DNA of 64,000 bases, from positions 496-64,495 of IMG/VR virus record IMGVR_UViG_3300035703_000082. One strand, given 5' to 3'. Positions 5,705 through 51,528 of this stretch are shown in pieces; position 1 is the stretch's first letter; each line of letters starts with the position of its first letter. Under the pieces are notes generated by a model. That model searched no databases. It saw nothing but the letters and a program-made list of their open reading frames with translations, and was not told where the DNA came from. The DNA comes from a virus. The position numbers were made by a program, and so were the translations under genes.

Positions 5705-7339
5705 TTACCTAACCCGTTGCACTGCGCCGGGGGGCGGCACATCACTGGCACCCGTGGGCGCGGTATCCACCGTCATGCCGCCGAGGCGTGCGAGTTGCTC
5801 GCGAAGCCGCACGGCGCGTTGTTCAGCGGCTGCACGCTGTGCAGGAGTGGCGCTCAAGGAGGCCGCAACTGTGTTTGCCTCCTCCAGCAATGCACGGATC
5901 GCGCTCACTTGCCCGGTATCAACGCGGCTCTCGCGTCCGCCCCCTTGCTGCGCCCGTACAAGGTCAGCTTGAGCAGCAACACGCCTTGCCCCCGCTTCGA
6001 CCTCGGTCGCGGAAGTCTTCCGCTCTTCCCGCCCTTCCGACGCCAGTTTGAACTGGTAGTCGCGCAGGGCTTCCGATGCCTTGATTTCTGCCGCCGCGAT
6101 ACGCTCGCGGTCGCCCGAGCGGTAGGCGAGCTGTTTCTCCAGCATGGCTTGGCGCAGGGTTTCTTCTGCGTCCTCCAGCGTCATCAGCTCCTTGCGGAGC
6201 TGCCGCTGCTGTTCGCGCCGCTTGGTCTCGAATTCACCCACGCCCTGCGCTGCGCCTGACAGGAATTCCCCAAGGCTCTTGGCCCCACGGGCCCCGCCAA
6301 GCGCTGCCGCCAACGCGGCTTGCCGCTGCTCCTCCGGCGTCTGATCCAGGCTCCTGCCATACTCCTCGCGCTGCTGTGCACGGCGCGTCAGCCGCGCCTC
6401 CTGGCTCTTCAGGAGCGCTTCGCGCAGCGCCTTCTCGTCTTCGGGCACGGTGCCTGCGCCGCGCACGCGGCTCATGTAGTCCTCGATGCTGAACGGCGTC
6501 ACGCCCGGAGGCAGTGCCGATGCAAGGCCGGGAGCTTGTGCAGGCGGCGTAGCCGCAGCGGCAGGAGGCCGCGCAGCAGGCGGAGGCGGGGTTTGACGGG
6601 GTGGGGGCGGCGTTTGGGACGCAACCCTGCGCCCTTCTCGCACCGCTGCGGGTTCTGGGTACGACTGCGTCGTAGCTGCCCGTGCCGGCGCAGCGGCTGC
6701 GCCTGCGGCAGCAGCAAGCCCTGCTGCAGGAGCCGGAGAAATACGCCCTTGAGTGAGCGCGTCCAGTATCGGGAGGCGTTGCTCGGGAGGCGTGCGGAAG
6801 TAGTCCATCACGCTGCGAAACGCGCGGCGCAAGGGGCGGTTGGCAATCTCGTCCGCTTCTTCAGCTTCGCGGCGCTTACGCGCTTCGTACTGCGCACGCG
6901 TCTCCCCAGGCTCCGGGCCTTCGCGCGGGGAGAAGATCGGCACGCCGCCGACGGAGGTGAGCGTGTCATCGGCACGCGTCGCTCCACCCAACTGAAACCC
7001 CTGCACCTGCATCAACCCGCCTTGCGCGGCGTTGACGGTGCCCATGACGCCTTCGGCCACAGTGCGGGGCTGCTGTGCCAGTTGCTGCTGCGCGGACTGA
7101 AGCTGCTGCGCTTCGCGCATCTGCTGCATCTTGATCTGGCGATCTCGCGCAGCGATGATGGCGTACGTCGGCACGCCTTCCGGCGGGTTCATGTACAACT
7201 GCTTCAGCACTTCAGGCGGCAGCTTGACCAATGAATCTACCGTGCTCGGCACCGGCTGCTGCACACCCTGCTTCGCCTGCATGGCAGAAAAAAGCCCGCT
7301 CATGGTGGGCGCGGCCTGTCCGGGCATTTGCGGCATCAT
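5705..7339 (-). CDS. Internal virion (ejection) protein
   Basis: 544 aa, Q/A/P-rich and coiled-coil; position among the late internal-protein genes; AAQGGLM motif. Confidence 0.65.
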   Translation of the reverse strand: MMPQMPGQAAPTMSGLFSAMQAKQGVQQPVPSTVDSLVKLPPEVLKQLYMNPPEGVPTYAIIAARDRQIKMQQMREAQQLQSAQQQLAQQPRTVAEGVMGTVNAAQGGLMQVQGFQLGGATRADDTLTSVGGVPIFSPREGPEPGETRAQYEARKRREAEEADEIANRPLRRAFRSVMDYFRTPPEQRLPILDALTQGRISPAPAAGLAAAAGAAAAPARAATTQSYPEPAAVREGRRVASQTPPPPRQTPPPPAARPPAAAATPPAQAPGLASALPPGVTPFSIEDYMSRVRGAGTVPEDEKALREALLKSQEARLTRRAQQREEYGRSLDQTPEEQRQAALAAALGGARGAKSLGEFLSGAAQGVGEFETKRREQQRQLRKELMTLEDAEETLRQAMLEKQLAYRSGDRERIAAAEIKASEALRDYQFKLASEGREERKTSATEVEAGARRVAAQADLVRAQQGGGRESRVDTGQVSAIRALLEEANTVAASLSATPAQRAAAEQRAVRLREQLARLGGMTVDTAPTGASDVPPPGAVQRVR

Positions 7340-8418
7340 TTTGTGTCTCCAAAGAAGTTCAGCAACCCGTATGCGCCGAGTCCGCCTTTTAAGGCTTCTA
7401 GTAGCGCAGACTGCTCCGGCTGGAACTCATTGGCCCTGATTGGAAGCCCCTGCAACAGACTCTGCATGTACGTCGCCTGTTGGTACGGATACTTCATACT
7501 CTCTTGGAACTGTTGGTAGCCGAAGTCGAGCGGCTGCTGAGCAAGCTCGCGCTGTGTTGCACCCGCTGCAAGCTGATCCGCCAGAGACCGGAGCCCGTAG
7601 TTGGCACCGAATTGACGCGACGCTTCTGACTGTCGTTGGGCCTCCAGGCCCTGGGTTGCACCGAACTCCGCGCCTCGGGCGCGTTGTTGCTCTTGGAACT
7701 GCCGTGCGGCCTCCGTCTGCTGGAGCCCCGCCAATCCGTACTGTGCGCCTAGCTGCGCGGCGGTCATGGCTTGACCAGCACCGAACTGCCGGGACGCCTC
7801 CGTCCCGCGTTGAGCCTCCAGGCCCAGGCCAGCCTCTTGTGCACGCTGCGCCAGCGCACGGTCGTAAGCCCCCTGCAAGCCCCGGGAGGTGATGTCCCCG
7901 ATTTGCGTACCGAGGTTGCGCTGACGCTCCGCCTCCATGATGGCTTGCCGGCTACCGCCGAAGGCTCCAGCCTGCGCAAGCCGCGCCTGCTCCGCATTCC
8001 GAGAAATGTCCGCCTGCCGCCGCGCCTCACGCGCTTCGATGTCCGTCACCGAAGAGAGATACGGTGACATGTAGCTCTGCACCGAACCCACCGGCCCAAG
8101 ACCAGTGTTGAACTGCATCGGCGTGTACGCACCGGGCGCAGTGAACTGGTTGCTGAACTGAGTGGCACCAGACAACGCCGGGGGCGTGTAGCCTGCGGTG
8201 AACTGCGTGGGGGTGTACTGGCCTAGCGCACCAAGACCCGAGAAGGCTTGCTGTTGGAGCGCCGAAGGCCCCGCGAAGCGCTCACCCGTGTAGGGCTGGA
8301 ACGGCAGGTTGGCCGCTGCCTCCCCCTTCGACAGCATGTTGTAAACATACGGCGCGAAGTTGGGGCTGAGCGTGGATTGAGAGGGGTCAAGGCTCGTGGT
8401 GGTAACGTCAGCCATCAC
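7336..8418 (-). CDS. Internal virion (ejection/pilot-like) protein
   Basis: 360 aa, Q/A/G-rich with EAxRQFGA repeats; coupled to its neighbours by overlapping start/stop codons. Confidence 0.65.
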   Translation of the reverse strand: MMADVTTTSLDPSQSTLSPNFAPYVYNMLSKGEAAANLPFQPYTGERFAGPSALQQQAFSGLGALGQYTPTQFTAGYTPPALSGATQFSNQFTAPGAYTPMQFNTGLGPVGSVQSYMSPYLSSVTDIEAREARRQADISRNAEQARLAQAGAFGGSRQAIMEAERQRNLGTQIGDITSRGLQGAYDRALAQRAQEAGLGLEAQRGTEASRQFGAGQAMTAAQLGAQYGLAGLQQTEAARQFQEQQRARGAEFGATQGLEAQRQSEASRQFGANYGLRSLADQLAAGATQRELAQQPLDFGYQQFQESMKYPYQQATYMQSLLQGLPIRANEFQPEQSALLEALKGGLGAYGLLNFFGDTK

Positions 8419-9995
8419 GCTCTCCTCTGGAGGTTGTTCATCAGGTTGTACATCTGGCGTGCACCGCCCATGCGCTGGACAGTCTCCCGAGGGACGTAGG
8501 CTTCACCGTTTGACACCCGGGCCGGAGTCTGGCCCTTGGCCCCGTGGATTGTCGCAGGGATGCTGTCGCTTGTGCCAGTCCCTGGCCCCCGAATTGGCTG
8601 CGCACCGGGCACCAGCGCGGCGAGGCCCCGGGGTCCGCCCGCGCCATCAACGGCCCGCTTGGTCAGCACGAACCCGCCGTCTTCCATATTGACGTGGCCC
8701 CCGTGGGCGTAGGCGTGCATCAGTCCGCCTTGGGCGGCGTATTGAGCCAGCGGACCGTACTTGCCTTGCACCATCATGCGCTGAAGGGGCGCGGGGCCTT
8801 GGTAGGCTTGAGCGGTACCGCCCCCGCGTTGAGGAAGACGTTCCTTGGCAGCTAGGTAGGCTGCGAGACCAGCGAGCCCGGTCTTGCCCAGGTCAGAGGT
8901 CACGAGTTTGCCCAGGGTGTCAAGCCCGGGAGTGTCGATGAACTTCTTGAGGGGATCGAAGAAACCGGTGCCACCCAGGACTTCGGAAGGAATGTTCGTG
9001 CCTTTGGTCAGGATACCCGTGCCAGCAACGCCGGGGCCTTCTGTTGCAGCAACTTCTTCCATGTCGGAGAGGAACGGTCTGGTAGCAGCGGCGGCATTCC
9101 CGCCGATAGCCGCCATCCCTTCGGGAACACCCATACCTGCAGCGAGCGCGGCGTCAGCAGGCACTCCGAGGTCAGCGAAGCCGGCGTAGAGGTCTCCAAC
9201 ACCCGCACCGGGCACGCCCGTCATGTCCCACGGGCCGCTAGGAGGCAGCTCCATCGCAAGATCACCGAGCAGTACATCCGGCGTCTGTACGTGAGCAATG
9301 GAGCCGACATCGGTAAGCGGCTGAAGTACAACCTGCTCCGGTGCCGCGATACCCGACAAACCGCCAGTGATGTCAGAGCTTAGGCCCGCTAGGTCAGCGG
9401 CAGTGAGACCTCCGATAGCCGGAACCTGCGCAATCGGTACCCCCGACGCTCCAACGATATTGCCGCTGACCGCACCGAGACCTTCCATCGCTCCACCTGC
9501 GGCGATAGCTCCCGGACCAGTAGCACCGCTCAAGGCAGTCGTTACGGGCGTCAGTGCGTTGCCCAGCGCCCCAGCGCCGAAATACGCGCCTACAGAGGGA
9601 AGGACAAATTCCTTGAAGAAATCGCCGAAGCCGCCGACTTTAACCGTTCGCTGGTTTGTTACTTCACCAGTGGGCAGGCGGAAACCGACGGTCTGTCTGT
9701 CCTTGTTGATCTTGCTCGCGTCAGTGACGAAATCGTAGCCCTCGGCCCGCTTTGACTGAATCCAGTTTAGGAACTGAGGCGAATAGCCGGTGTAATTGTT
9801 GCCGTCAGGGCCGATGTAATCTTCCATCGTAGGCCCCGTCCACCCGAGTTGCGGCGCAACCATCTCCCAGTTCTGCGGGCTCTGTAGTCCAGCAACCTGC
9901 GAGTCATACGCACCGGAAACGTAGCCGCTCTCGTCGTAAGTGCCGGGATACTGCGAGAAAAACGGGTCACTCGCGGAAAGCCATTGCTGTGCCAT
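8415..9995 (-). CDS. Internal virion protein with C-terminal GPGTGTSDSIPA motif
   Basis: 526 aa; C-terminal GG...GPGTGTSDSIPA...SNGEAYV resembles the motif near the end of many tape-measure proteins. Confidence 0.6.
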   Translation of the reverse strand: MAQQWLSASDPFFSQYPGTYDESGYVSGAYDSQVAGLQSPQNWEMVAPQLGWTGPTMEDYIGPDGNNYTGYSPQFLNWIQSKRAEGYDFVTDASKINKDRQTVGFRLPTGEVTNQRTVKVGGFGDFFKEFVLPSVGAYFGAGALGNALTPVTTALSGATGPGAIAAGGAMEGLGAVSGNIVGASGVPIAQVPAIGGLTAADLAGLSSDITGGLSGIAAPEQVVLQPLTDVGSIAHVQTPDVLLGDLAMELPPSGPWDMTGVPGAGVGDLYAGFADLGVPADAALAAGMGVPEGMAAIGGNAAAATRPFLSDMEEVAATEGPGVAGTGILTKGTNIPSEVLGGTGFFDPLKKFIDTPGLDTLGKLVTSDLGKTGLAGLAAYLAAKERLPQRGGGTAQAYQGPAPLQRMMVQGKYGPLAQYAAQGGLMHAYAHGGHVNMEDGGFVLTKRAVDGAGGPRGLAALVPGAQPIRGPGTGTSDSIPATIHGAKGQTPARVSNGEAYVPRETVQRMGGARQMYNLMNNLQRRA

Positions 9996-47493: not shown

Positions 47494-47801
47494 CCAAGCA
47501 CACACCGGGACCGTGGACGCTGTACGGGCCTATGGGTACCGGGCATTTGCGCGGAGAAGAACCTTGGTTTTATGTTGGCGCCGACACGACGCTACATCTA
47601 CAAGTGGTGGCGTGCCCTGATGGGTATGTGATCGGTGAGAACGCTGCCAATGCACGCCTGATTGCCGCCGCGCCGGATTTGTTGGACGTTCTGCTGCGTG
47701 CCAAAGACATCATCGAGGCACTCGACGGAACATCGACGGAAAACGAGAAGTTGGTGGACGACTATCGCGCAGTCCTTGCCAAGGTAGAAGGAACGAAATG
47801 A
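47490..47801 (+). CDS. Hypothetical protein (MTKHTPGPW...ANARLIAAAPDLL family)
   Basis: Common phage motif HTPGPW and NARLIAAAPDL. Confidence 0.75.
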   Translation: MTKHTPGPWTLYGPMGTGHLRGEEPWFYVGADTTLHLQVVACPDGYVIGENAANARLIAAAPDLLDVLLRAKDIIEALDGTSTENEKLVDDYRAVLAKVEGTK

Positions 47802-48025
47802 CAACCCACGACCCCGTCAACCATCCCAAGCACTACACCGAGCACCCATCAGGTGTCGAGTGCATACAGATCACCGAGCACATGGGCTTCTGCCTGGGTA
47901 ACGCCATCAAGTACATCTGGCGTGCCGACCTCAAGGGCGATGCCATCGAGGATCTTCAGAAGGCGGTGTGGTATATCGAGAGGGAGATCAAGCGCCGTAA
48001 AGCGGCGTCGGGAGACGCCGAATGA
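47798..48025 (+). CDS. DUF3310 family protein
   Basis: DPVNHPKHY...ECI...FCLGNAIKYIWRA..K..IEDLQKA.WY. Confidence 0.85.
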   Translation: MTTHDPVNHPKHYTEHPSGVECIQITEHMGFCLGNAIKYIWRADLKGDAIEDLQKAVWYIEREIKRRKAASGDAE

Positions 48026-50594: not shown

Positions 50595-50655
50595 TGCCGT
50601 CGTTGTGGCGGGGCTCGCCGGGGCGGCTGTCCTTTTGTTTTGGAGGTGGAGATGA
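50572..50655 (+). CDS. 27-aa membrane peptide
   Basis: MNPDSILDAVVVAGLAGAAVLLFWRWR. Confidence 0.4.
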   Translation: MNPDSILDAVVVAGLAGAAVLLFWRWR

Positions 50656-50795
50656 CTGACATGCACCCCTGTGGCCTGACCATGCGCCGCTGGTTGTGGC
50701 CTTTCAAGACCGACGAGGAACGCGCCATCGTCGCCCGGTGGTTTGCCAAGCAAGTCCGCGCTGAGCGCGGCCAAGGTGAGGAGGCGCTGTTATGA
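50652..50795 (+). CDS. Small hypothetical protein (47 aa)
   Basis: Hand translation MTDMHPCGLTMRRWLWPF...; GGAGG RBS; ATGA-coupled. Confidence 0.55.
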   Translation: MTDMHPCGLTMRRWLWPFKTDEERAIVARWFAKQVRAERGQGEEALL

Positions 50796-51013
50796 CTGAC
50801 GAGCGTCTAAACGAACTGATGAGCCCGCAGCCCACGGTTGTGGTGCGCTCTCTCGCCAAAGACCCGAACTACGTCAAGTGCCCGCGTTGCTGGCACTACA
50901 CGCATGAGGGGCTGCACAACTACGACAACCTGTGTGATCGTTGTTGCAATGTGCTGGTAAACCACTGGCCGAATCATGAGAGCGTGCCGCGTATCCTTGC
51001 GGCGAGGCGGTGA
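50792..51013 (+). CDS. Stand-alone FPG/IleRS-type zinc finger protein
   Basis: KCPRCWHYT...LCDRC matches the pattern of the C-terminal Zn finger of bacterial IleRS. Confidence 0.7.
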   Translation: MTDERLNELMSPQPTVVVRSLAKDPNYVKCPRCWHYTHEGLHNYDNLCDRCCNVLVNHWPNHESVPRILAARR

Positions 51014-51014
51014 C

Positions 51015-51383
51015 ATGGCCCTGAACGTCCACCTCAGTAACACCACTGCCTACGCGGCGGTGGTCGAGGCCCTGGTGTACGGCGGCGGCACGGTGCCTGA
51101 GCTTCACGAGACCTCGGGACTGGCGCTCAACACCACGCGCAAGTTCATCCGCGCCCTGCGCAGCCGCGACCTTGTCAGGGTTATCCTGTGGAAACGGGAC
51201 GCCTGGGGCCGGCACACAATCGCCGTCTACGCCTGGGGCAGCCCGCGCTACGACGCCAAGCGCCCGCCGCGCATGACATCGGCTGAACGATCCGCAAGAC
51301 TTAGGAGGAAGAAACGTGAGATGTCCGCAGTGCGGAGCCTGGAGCGAGGTGCGGGAGACACGCATGCCGCGCCGCAGGCGTGA
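51015..51383 (+). CDS. Winged-HTH-like protein
   Basis: TVPELHETSGLALNTTRKFIRALRSRDLV; GAGG RBS. Confidence 0.6.
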   Translation: MALNVHLSNTTAYAAVVEALVYGGGTVPELHETSGLALNTTRKFIRALRSRDLVRVILWKRDAWGRHTIAVYAWGSPRYDAKRPPRMTSAERSARLRRKKREMSAVRSLERGAGDTHAAPQA

Positions 51384-51528
51384 GTGCGGTAACGGACACC
51401 GCTTCACCACCATAGAACTCCCGGCGACTGATGCAGCGGCGTATACTGCAGCAGAAGCAGACAAACGAGATAAGTATTTGCGCAGTAGAGCCAAGCTCAT
51501 CGCGCTTGGCTACCTGCAACCAGACTGA
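51316..51528 (+). CDS. NrdR-like zinc ribbon protein
   Basis: MRCPQCG..SEVRETR..RRRREC.NGHRFTT.E. Confidence 0.7.
   Translation: MRCPQCGAWSEVRETRMPRRRRECGNGHRFTTIELPATDAAAYTAAEADKRDKYLRSRAKLIALGYLQPD

Follow-up and report, generated by a model that had tools for sequence, protein, structure and literature searches.

The zinc-binding domain (ZBD) that closes type 1 isoleucyl-tRNA synthetase (IleRS1) is the closest known counterpart of the viral protein described in this article. It is a domain of about 31 residues (PF06827), which corresponds to residues ~884-913 of the Staphylococcus aureus enzyme (1FFY/1QU2) and to the C901-C924 region, including W905, of the Escherichia coli enzyme, and it has been classified as a treble clef (PMC13752280, PMC4999995). 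In the structure of S. aureus IleRS (SaIleRS) with tRNA-Ile, R888 makes a backbone hydrogen bond and W890 stacks on the wobble base G34 (PMC11685878, PMC3575796). The corresponding tryptophan of E. coli IleRS, W905, also contacts the wobble base; its replacement by Arg or Lys turns recognition toward pyrimidines at the wobble position, and R, K or L is found at the equivalent position in Mycoplasma species that have no tilS (PMC3575796). It is to be noted that the ZBD of IleRS1 reads position 34 only, and reads it loosely by backbone and stacking contacts; A35 and U36 are read by another domain, ARD1 (PMC13752280). It is by means of its zinc finger that IleRS1, at the wobble base, distinguishes tRNA-Ile from tRNA-Met.

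Pieces of aminoacyl-tRNA synthetases also exist as free-standing proteins, such as Trbp111/CsaA, which corresponds to the C-terminal tRNA-binding domain of MetRS, AlaX, YbaK/ProX, and YadB/Glu-Q-RS. The family described here is like the class of Trbp111, AlaX and YbaK in that a synthetase domain, or a pair of domains in its long forms, is made as an independent small protein, and the domain of Trbp111 binds tRNA. Members of that class are cellular and have been shown to bind tRNA or to have editing activity, whereas the present family is viral or metagenomic, consists of much smaller proteins, and has only a putative activity. Our search of the literature found no description of a free-standing or viral IleRS ZBD.

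The protein encoded by the phage has in common with the IleRS1 ZBD the CxxC-x14-CxxC arrangement, the K-C-P-R-C-W-H-Y knuckle with the wobble-contacting R and W, the L-C-x-R-C start of the helix, the beta-strand that precedes the finger, and a predicted treble-clef secondary structure. Unlike the ZBD, it is encoded in the early block of a phage genome by an open reading frame (ORF) of 73 codons with its own Shine-Dalgarno sequence and start, and is not joined to a synthetase: the HUP, editing and ARD1 domains are all missing. Its spacer loop is fixed and family-specific, and a conserved helix takes the place of the N..G.GE.R.FA ending of the enzyme. Because the sequence and the ligands are those of an IleRS ZBD while the synthetase context is absent, we file the protein as a stand-alone derivative and not as an IleRS.

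A small gene in the early region of a phage genome

The DNA under study, hereafter the window, is a stretch of 64,000 nucleotides that covers bases 496-64495 of a 66,647-bp IMG/VR virus record, whose completeness is 100% by CheckV. Late genes on the minus strand, for a terminase, a portal, a virion protein and two giant proteins of ~1,900 and 2,078 amino acids, extend up to ~39 kb. Early and replication genes are on the plus strand and encode a VRR-NUC-like nuclease, a family-A DNA polymerase (PolA), a Cas4-like exonuclease with an insertion, a helicase and a primase. The finger gene, present as a single copy in the whole 66.6-kb record, is within a tight run of small early genes on the plus strand, just upstream of the genes for the VRR-NUC nuclease, PolA, the helicase and the primase. 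It occupies 50792-51013 including the stop codon, with ATG at 50792 and TGA at 51011-51013, and homologues and purifying selection, described below, accompany the ORF. These are exactly the limits that a first-pass annotation made from the letters had given to it. A GGAGG sequence at 50780-50784 on the same strand, 7 nt 5' of the ATG, reads as its Shine-Dalgarno sequence.

The start of the finger gene overlaps the stop codon of the preceding gene as ATGA. This upstream gene (50652-50795, plus strand, ATG at 50652) encodes 47 amino acids, matches no family, and is conserved in no relatives other than L082 and L084, the closest two. Downstream, a gene of 122 codons on the plus strand (51015-51383) most plausibly starts with the ATG at 51015, 1 nt past the stop of the finger gene; it also matches no family, and it adjoins the finger gene only in L082 among the relatives compared. 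Two other small plus-strand genes of this region could be assigned to families: the one at 51316-51528, two genes downstream of the finger gene, encodes 70 amino acids that include an NrdR-like zinc ribbon (PF22811, scoring 27.5 bits where the cut-off is 27.2), and the one at 47798-48025 encodes a small DUF3310 protein (PF11753, E=1e-16), whose homologue is found at differing distances from the finger gene among related phages. Among the neighbours scanned, most of which match no recognisable family, no defence or anti-defence gene was identified.

The deduced protein has the sequence MTDERLNELMSPQPTVVVRSLAKDPNYVKCPRCWHYTHEGLHNYDNLCDRCCNVLVNHWPNHESVPRILAARR. Three segments can be told apart in it. 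Residues 14-24, PTVVVRSLAKD (50831-50863, plus strand), can be aligned with KVVVRASTNP of a Burkholderiales IleRS and with the strand that precedes the finger of the long forms, and from these alignments appear to be a remnant of the last beta-strand of ARD2, the IleRS domain that leads to the finger. Residues 27-56 (50870-50959, plus strand) form the core of the treble-clef zinc finger according to Pfam PF06827, hhalign, alignment to residues 884-913 of 1FFY and the secondary structure in an AlphaFold2 (AF2) model; its predicted cysteine ligands are C30, C33, C48 and C51, and R32 and W34 are at the positions that contact the wobble base. Residues 57-73 (50960-51010, plus strand), WPNHESVPRI and what follows, with the family consensus P-x-H-x-S-V-P-x-I, are a family-specific extension not found in IleRS, as judged from conservation and from a helix in the model. 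The motifs that had been picked out by eye, VVVRSLAK and KCPRCWHYT...LCDRCCNVL, are present as reported, the former as residues 16-23 and the latter after an intervening DPNYV.

Descent from the IleRS zinc-binding domain

The first-pass annotation had called the protein a free-standing copy of the IleRS zinc finger, and this homology has been borne out by PF06827, hhalign, matches to the termini of ileS genes, and long forms with ARD2. The comparison with zf-FPG_IleRS (PF06827), which it had proposed as a check, gave the sole Pfam match of the window protein (E=3.2e-4, 20.9 bits against the gathering cut-off of 21.3). Among 41 family members, 38 match PF06827 at E<=0.01 and match no other family, the best with E=2.5e-7; searches of PHROGs and NCBIfam gave no significant match for the finger protein. 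By hhalign, the family aligns with IleRS tails at 98.6% probability when the tails are picked by the motif, and at 97.9% with E=6.3e-13 when they are picked without it.

Scanning one genome per species with the family motif brought up hundreds of chromosomal sites. In 31 of the 36 sites checked, the motif closes a frame of ~930-1000 codons that ends with ...KCPRCWHY...LC.RC...GE.R.FA, that is, the terminus of ileS; three of the other five are ileS tails cut by the end of a contig, and two (L002 and L003) are free-standing. As these 36 sites had been selected by the motif, the comparison was repeated on 151 genomes drawn evenly from one class without motif selection. The family profile matched 76 of them at E<=0.01 per genome (75 of 150 if G044, an unpublished genome, is left aside), and, with few exceptions, one match in each closes an ileS frame of ~930-1000 codons. 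KCPRCWHY is the exact motif with which ileS frames of ~940-980 codons end in Enterobacterales, Burkholderiales and other bacteria; the ileS loci examined have it throughout, and many have KCPRCWHYT, a run of nine consecutive residues that we take to be identical to the tail of E. coli IleRS. In the alignment to 1FFY, R32 falls on R888 of SaIleRS and W34 on W890. The four cysteines, arranged as CxxC-spacer-CxxC (C30, C33, C48 and C51), do not vary among 148 representatives of the family, and the spacer between the pairs, which has 14 residues in the window protein, has 12-16 in IleRS tails. Taken together, it is very probable that the core of the window protein (residues 27-56) is homologous to the IleRS1 ZBD and that the family descended from IleRS.

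One site of the chromosomal scans deserves a separate remark. In a complete 2.1-Mb genome (L122, G086:C1:1139213-1142314), the ileS frame ends ~50 nt before the finger, and the finger is in another frame, in an open frame of 72 codons. This was considered as a free-standing chromosomal copy and rejected, since it is a frameshifted ileS; the break is either a true frameshift or a sequencing error.

Could the likeness have arisen by chance or convergence, from a generic CxxC...CxxC zinc ribbon, for example one related to bL32 or to Fpg/Nei, that has no IleRS ancestry? The PF06827 score just below the cut-off would allow it, and in a sequence search of the PDB, yeast mitochondrial bL32m came first (E=0.004), ahead of IleRS (E=0.26); these weak values for IleRS come from the PDB having no proteobacterial IleRS tail. 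Fold searches with the short model were also non-specific: Foldseek against the PDB gave only weak matches to treble-clef, RING, FYVE and bL32-like structures, headed by bL32 (E>=0.19), and the wide VIA-align search gave Z<=2.6, neither of which is informative for a zinc domain of 30 residues. Against such an origin, six-frame scans of genomes find the terminus of ileS and not rpmF, fpg or nei, KCPRCWHY is shared with IleRS tails, and the alignment of the long forms with IleRS extends through 115 columns and is accompanied by a model that matches IleRS1 structures. We thus regard chance or convergence as extremely improbable; the resemblance, which might have been confined to a generic CxxC finger, turned out to be specific to the IleRS1 ZBD. 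The finger of Fpg/Nei was rejected as the closest relative, as the 76 matched genomes present an ileS frame of ~950 codons and never an fpg or nei frame of ~270. bL32 was rejected too, with no Pfam L32 match and no rpmF match in the genome scans, and we read the resemblance to it as a general likeness among treble clefs and zinc ribbons.

The AF2 model of the 73-aa protein (pLDDT 87) has the knuckle, a hairpin at residues 28-37 and, starting at C48/C51, a helix at 49-58, and residues 65-72 in the C-terminal extension are modelled as a confident helix. This predicted secondary structure fits the classification of the IleRS ZBD as a treble clef.

Long forms and the origin of the family

Twelve family members are longer, 144-191 amino acids, and bear an N-terminal extension with an IleRS signature, ...vR..v...lE.lR....IGkS.eA.v.i...L..lf.VS.V... 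In an hhalign comparison, 115 columns of their alignment match the C-terminal ~125 residues of IleRS (99.4%, E=4.9e-22). When the AF2 model of one long form (pLDDT 89.6) was searched with Foldseek, the first seven matches were bacterial IleRS1 structures (1QU2, 8WNJ/F/G and 8C9E/F), with probabilities of 0.96-1.00 over 92-136 aligned columns. The long forms also carry N-[FY]-D-x-L-C-D-R-C and P-x-H-x-S-V-P-x-I, both absent from IleRS, and therefore they are relatives of the window protein and not stray fragments of ileS. Since they keep ARD2, the domain that precedes the finger in IleRS, the family descends from the C-terminal tRNA-reading module of the enzyme. Judging from these alignments, the window protein appears to be a minimal form made of the last ARD2 strand, the ZBD and the C-terminal helix.

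In a tree with IleRS tails, a long branch supported at 99/99 separates the long forms from every sampled IleRS tail, and they fall inside none of the sampled IleRS lineages. The tree agrees with one old capture, as far as such a tree can indicate, and it names no donor. Two of the long forms, P0076 and P0176, were not found in IMG/VR. A second architecture is seen in P0059, P0062 and P0091, in which the finger and the C-terminal helix are followed by a domain of ~140 amino acids (PEYW...ILPK..NP.YFLG.NYK.V.NFW.Y...FLPLF); this domain has no match in Pfam, PHROG or NCBIfam, and no other relative of it was found.

Conservation of the finger and the wobble-contacting positions

R32 is kept in 147 of the 148 representatives. 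Position 34 is W in 77, Y in 23, R in 20, K in 8 and Q in 7, so that W, Y, R or K is found in 128 of 148 (86%); in the clade of the window, R32 and W34 are each conserved to at least 90%, and the long forms have F, R, D, Y or G at position 34. This variation in the wider family is suggestive, as far as sequences go, when it is placed beside the W905 substitutions of E. coli IleRS. Other well-kept positions have no counterpart in the consensus of IleRS: N43 (137/148), L47 (139/148) and D49 (126/148) around the finger loop, and P60 (124/141), H62 (120/143) and I68 (133/146) in the C-terminal motif, where IleRS tails end with N..G.GE.R.FA instead. The conserved loop (THEGLHN.D.L) and the C-terminal motif, more conserved in the family than the same places are in IleRS, point to a putative family-specific surface and perhaps to a different partner.

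Such a partner is the essence of another explanation, in which the IleRS-derived finger was repurposed as a compact scaffold whose family-specific loop and helix bind another RNA, single-stranded or duplex DNA during replication or early transcription, or a host protein. That N43, L47, D49, P60, H62 and I68, the best-conserved positions of the family, are outside the IleRS consensus speaks for it, as do the variability of W34 in the wider family, the constant location of the gene among early and replication genes in two types of replication module, the lack of a consistent tRNA neighbourhood among the loci examined, and the existence of another fusion partner, the ~140-aa C-terminal domain of P0059, P0062 and P0091. 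It accounts less well for the near-invariance of R32 and for a residue 34 capable of stacking or basic in 86% of representatives, both of which are predicted if a base is read; moreover, the whole ARD2 and ZBD module is kept in the long forms, which would be odd if tRNA recognition had been dropped early. We consider this repurposing a serious possibility, although one that we would not bet on. The explanation that we prefer, that the protein is a phage-borne descendant of the C-terminal tRNA-reading module of IleRS1 with its function at the anticodon loop included, is itself a tentative one, to which as a whole we give not quite an even chance.

Distribution and mobility of the family

The finger protein is represented by 40 clusters at 90% identity, which share 55-99% identity with the window protein, and it is encoded at 39 IMG/VR loci; a profile search of 1.84 billion representatives extends the family to at least 266 clusters at 50% identity, 133 of them at E<=1e-10. 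The best 150 of the family's clusters are all 55-280 amino acids long and none of them is a synthetase. DNA and protein searches of 50,697 GenBank phage records detected no family member, and the family has been found in metagenomes only. The single weak match of a long form in GenBank, OR846604.1 (E=0.07), was rejected as a family member: it is a complete ileS of 933 codons from Enterococcus in a record flagged UNVERIFIED_ORG, that is, host DNA. In this record, named 'Enterococcus phage Efs 1-1-1', the stretch with ileS (L182, 6590-14913) is probably host chromosome, and a 507-aa ORF on the reverse strand beside ileS is, to our reading of its sequence, presumably glucose-6-phosphate dehydrogenase. 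The ESM Atlas contains additional clusters in which PF06827 is carried by 'hypothetical proteins' of 63-75 amino acids; thus, the free-standing architecture was already in databases, unstudied.

Across 17 copies of the finger gene, median pS is 0.81, with synonymous sites saturated, and median pN is 0.15. dN/dS is ~0.03-0.09 (0.013/0.418 against the nearest relative). The gene is a real one under strong purifying selection, beyond what chance can explain.

The finger protein is 97% identical between the window and L082, whose PolA is only 35% identical, and in L093 the values are 78% for the finger and 36% for PolA; in other relatives the finger is 67-68% identical where PolA is 62-68%. In L084, the DNA polymerase is encoded by two ORFs (6753-8069 and 8684-9637, in L084:6753-9637) with ~600 bp between them, where insertion of a homing endonuclease or an intein is possible. 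The immediate neighbours of the finger gene differ from phage to phage, and no conserved partner gene was found beside it among the relatives compared. A copy is also present on a 37-kb contig of a Pseudomonadota metagenome-assembled genome (L002, JAGWIG010000025.1), where the free-standing finger is directly upstream of a helicase-methyltransferase fusion in a module that also holds an O-like initiator and a DnaB-like helicase, a module that is phage-like and unlike the replication module of the window. Of the best 80 matches in bacterial assemblies, no other is a full-length free-standing copy, and this one is probably from a prophage or a mis-binned phage. With conservation above that of PolA, shifting neighbours, and a second type of replication module, the behaviour of the finger gene is that of a mobile accessory gene in the early/replication region, and it appears from these comparisons to move between otherwise divergent phages.

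Possible roles in the infected cell

How might a fragment of IleRS serve a phage? A fragment consisting of ARD2 and the ZBD became a phage family, with gain of a new C-terminal helix bearing P-x-H-x-S-V-P-x-I, and in the clade of the window it was trimmed to the last ARD2 strand, the ZBD and the new helix. The product would fold as a treble clef around one zinc ion, in which the C-terminal helix may stand in for the packing by ARD2 in the enzyme. In the manner of the enzyme's ZBD, it could then bind a host tRNA at its flipped-out wobble nucleotide (G34 or lysidine-34), with W34 stacking on this nucleotide and R32 making backbone hydrogen bonds, and the most likely target would be tRNA-Ile. With the anticodon loop masked or occupied during infection, the tRNA might be protected from nucleases or modifiers directed to the anticodon, or might be withheld from host IleRS.

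These steps do not deserve equal confidence. Putative binding of a tRNA anticodon loop by the finger protein, taken by itself and judged from its sequence, is the best guess at its function but rather short of probable. Specificity for tRNA-Ile is doubtful because IleRS needs ARD1, which is absent in the window protein, for A35 and U36; a 73-aa finger alone may bind weakly or without specificity for tRNA-Ile. Further points that weigh against a plain binder of tRNA-Ile are the variability of position 34, the conservation of residues peculiar to the family, the scarcity of tRNA genes in its carriers, and the failure to identify a defence or anti-defence gene among the neighbours scanned. As for roles, a shield against anticodon nucleases, a competitor of IleRS and a competitor of TilS are only plausible. 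Known counter-measures of phages to defences that target tRNAs include phage tRNAs that replace cleaved host tRNAs (PMC11555353, PMC10802454). If the tRNA-binding reading is true, the finger would act in the same conflict over the anticodon loops of the host. It differs, however, in that it would be an anticodon-binding protein, whereas tRNA genes and repair enzymes make up the counter-measures known so far, and no link to a defence system is attached to its gene.

The phage of the window has no tRNA genes. Among six carriers of the finger gene that are at least 95% complete, only one has a tRNA gene, and of five complete relatives four have none. This lone tRNA (L112:834-908, the same as G160:C1:14676-14747) has anticodon CAT, an acceptor stem of CGCGGAG and a C1.U72 mismatch, and we suppose, by comparison with E. 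coli tRNA-fMet, that it looks initiator-like rather than like tRNA-Ile2. A tRNA-Ile gene is near a family member in one of ~45 IMG/VR contigs, which is too few for an association. The contig in question belongs to a 106-kb AT-rich phage (L177:5079-8201, IMGVR_UViG_3300044796_000141), in which tRNA-Arg(TCT) and tRNA-Ile(TAT) genes are 2.9 kb and 1.4 kb upstream of the family member, respectively; an opposite-strand Cys-rich ORF (6539-7099) overlaps the 3' part of the tRNA-Ile gene, and the family member itself has Met at the wobble-stacking position (CPRCMKY), a single case.

The finger might act on the synthetase instead of the tRNA: a free copy could compete with the ZBD of host IleRS or add to it, either by docking at the enzyme's own finger site or by titrating a factor that recognises the C-terminus of IleRS, and so alter isoleucylation in infection. 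In favour of this, residues 14-24 preserve the strand between ARD2 and the finger, and work cited in PMC11685878 describes a C-terminally truncated IleRS that activates Ile without transferring it to tRNA, which would make the finger a control point of charging. On the other hand, a free copy would lose the competition with the finger of the enzyme, which is tethered in cis, and the IleRS of the host may not be of type 1. Action on the synthetase is therefore improbable in our estimation.

Returning to the anticodon loop, a bolder version can be imagined: phages would have domesticated the wobble reader of IleRS, and the mini-proteins of the resulting large family would bind anticodon loops of specific host or phage tRNAs, with residue 34 as the switch of specificity as in the enzyme. 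We think this unlikely to hold in full. If it does, W or Y would serve for G34 or lysidine, and R or K for a pyrimidine wobble base, as compared with W905R and W905K of E. coli IleRS (PMC3575796). Such proteins would then be the first known 'anticodon caps', which shield or sequester isoacceptors of tRNA-Ile against anticodon nucleases, or reprogram the decoding of AUA/AUH.

Concluding remarks

What is new here is the long forms that bear ARD2, and hence the derivation of the family from a larger piece of IleRS. The C-terminal modules of a synthetase can thus be captured and trimmed by viruses. The finger family is a concrete candidate for a viral binder of tRNA anticodon loops, and its ~70-aa members are candidates for a natural minimal reader of the wobble base, which may be of use in structural and engineering work. 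Even if they turn out to bind no tRNA, they would still be a clear case of a domain of the translation machinery put to another use.
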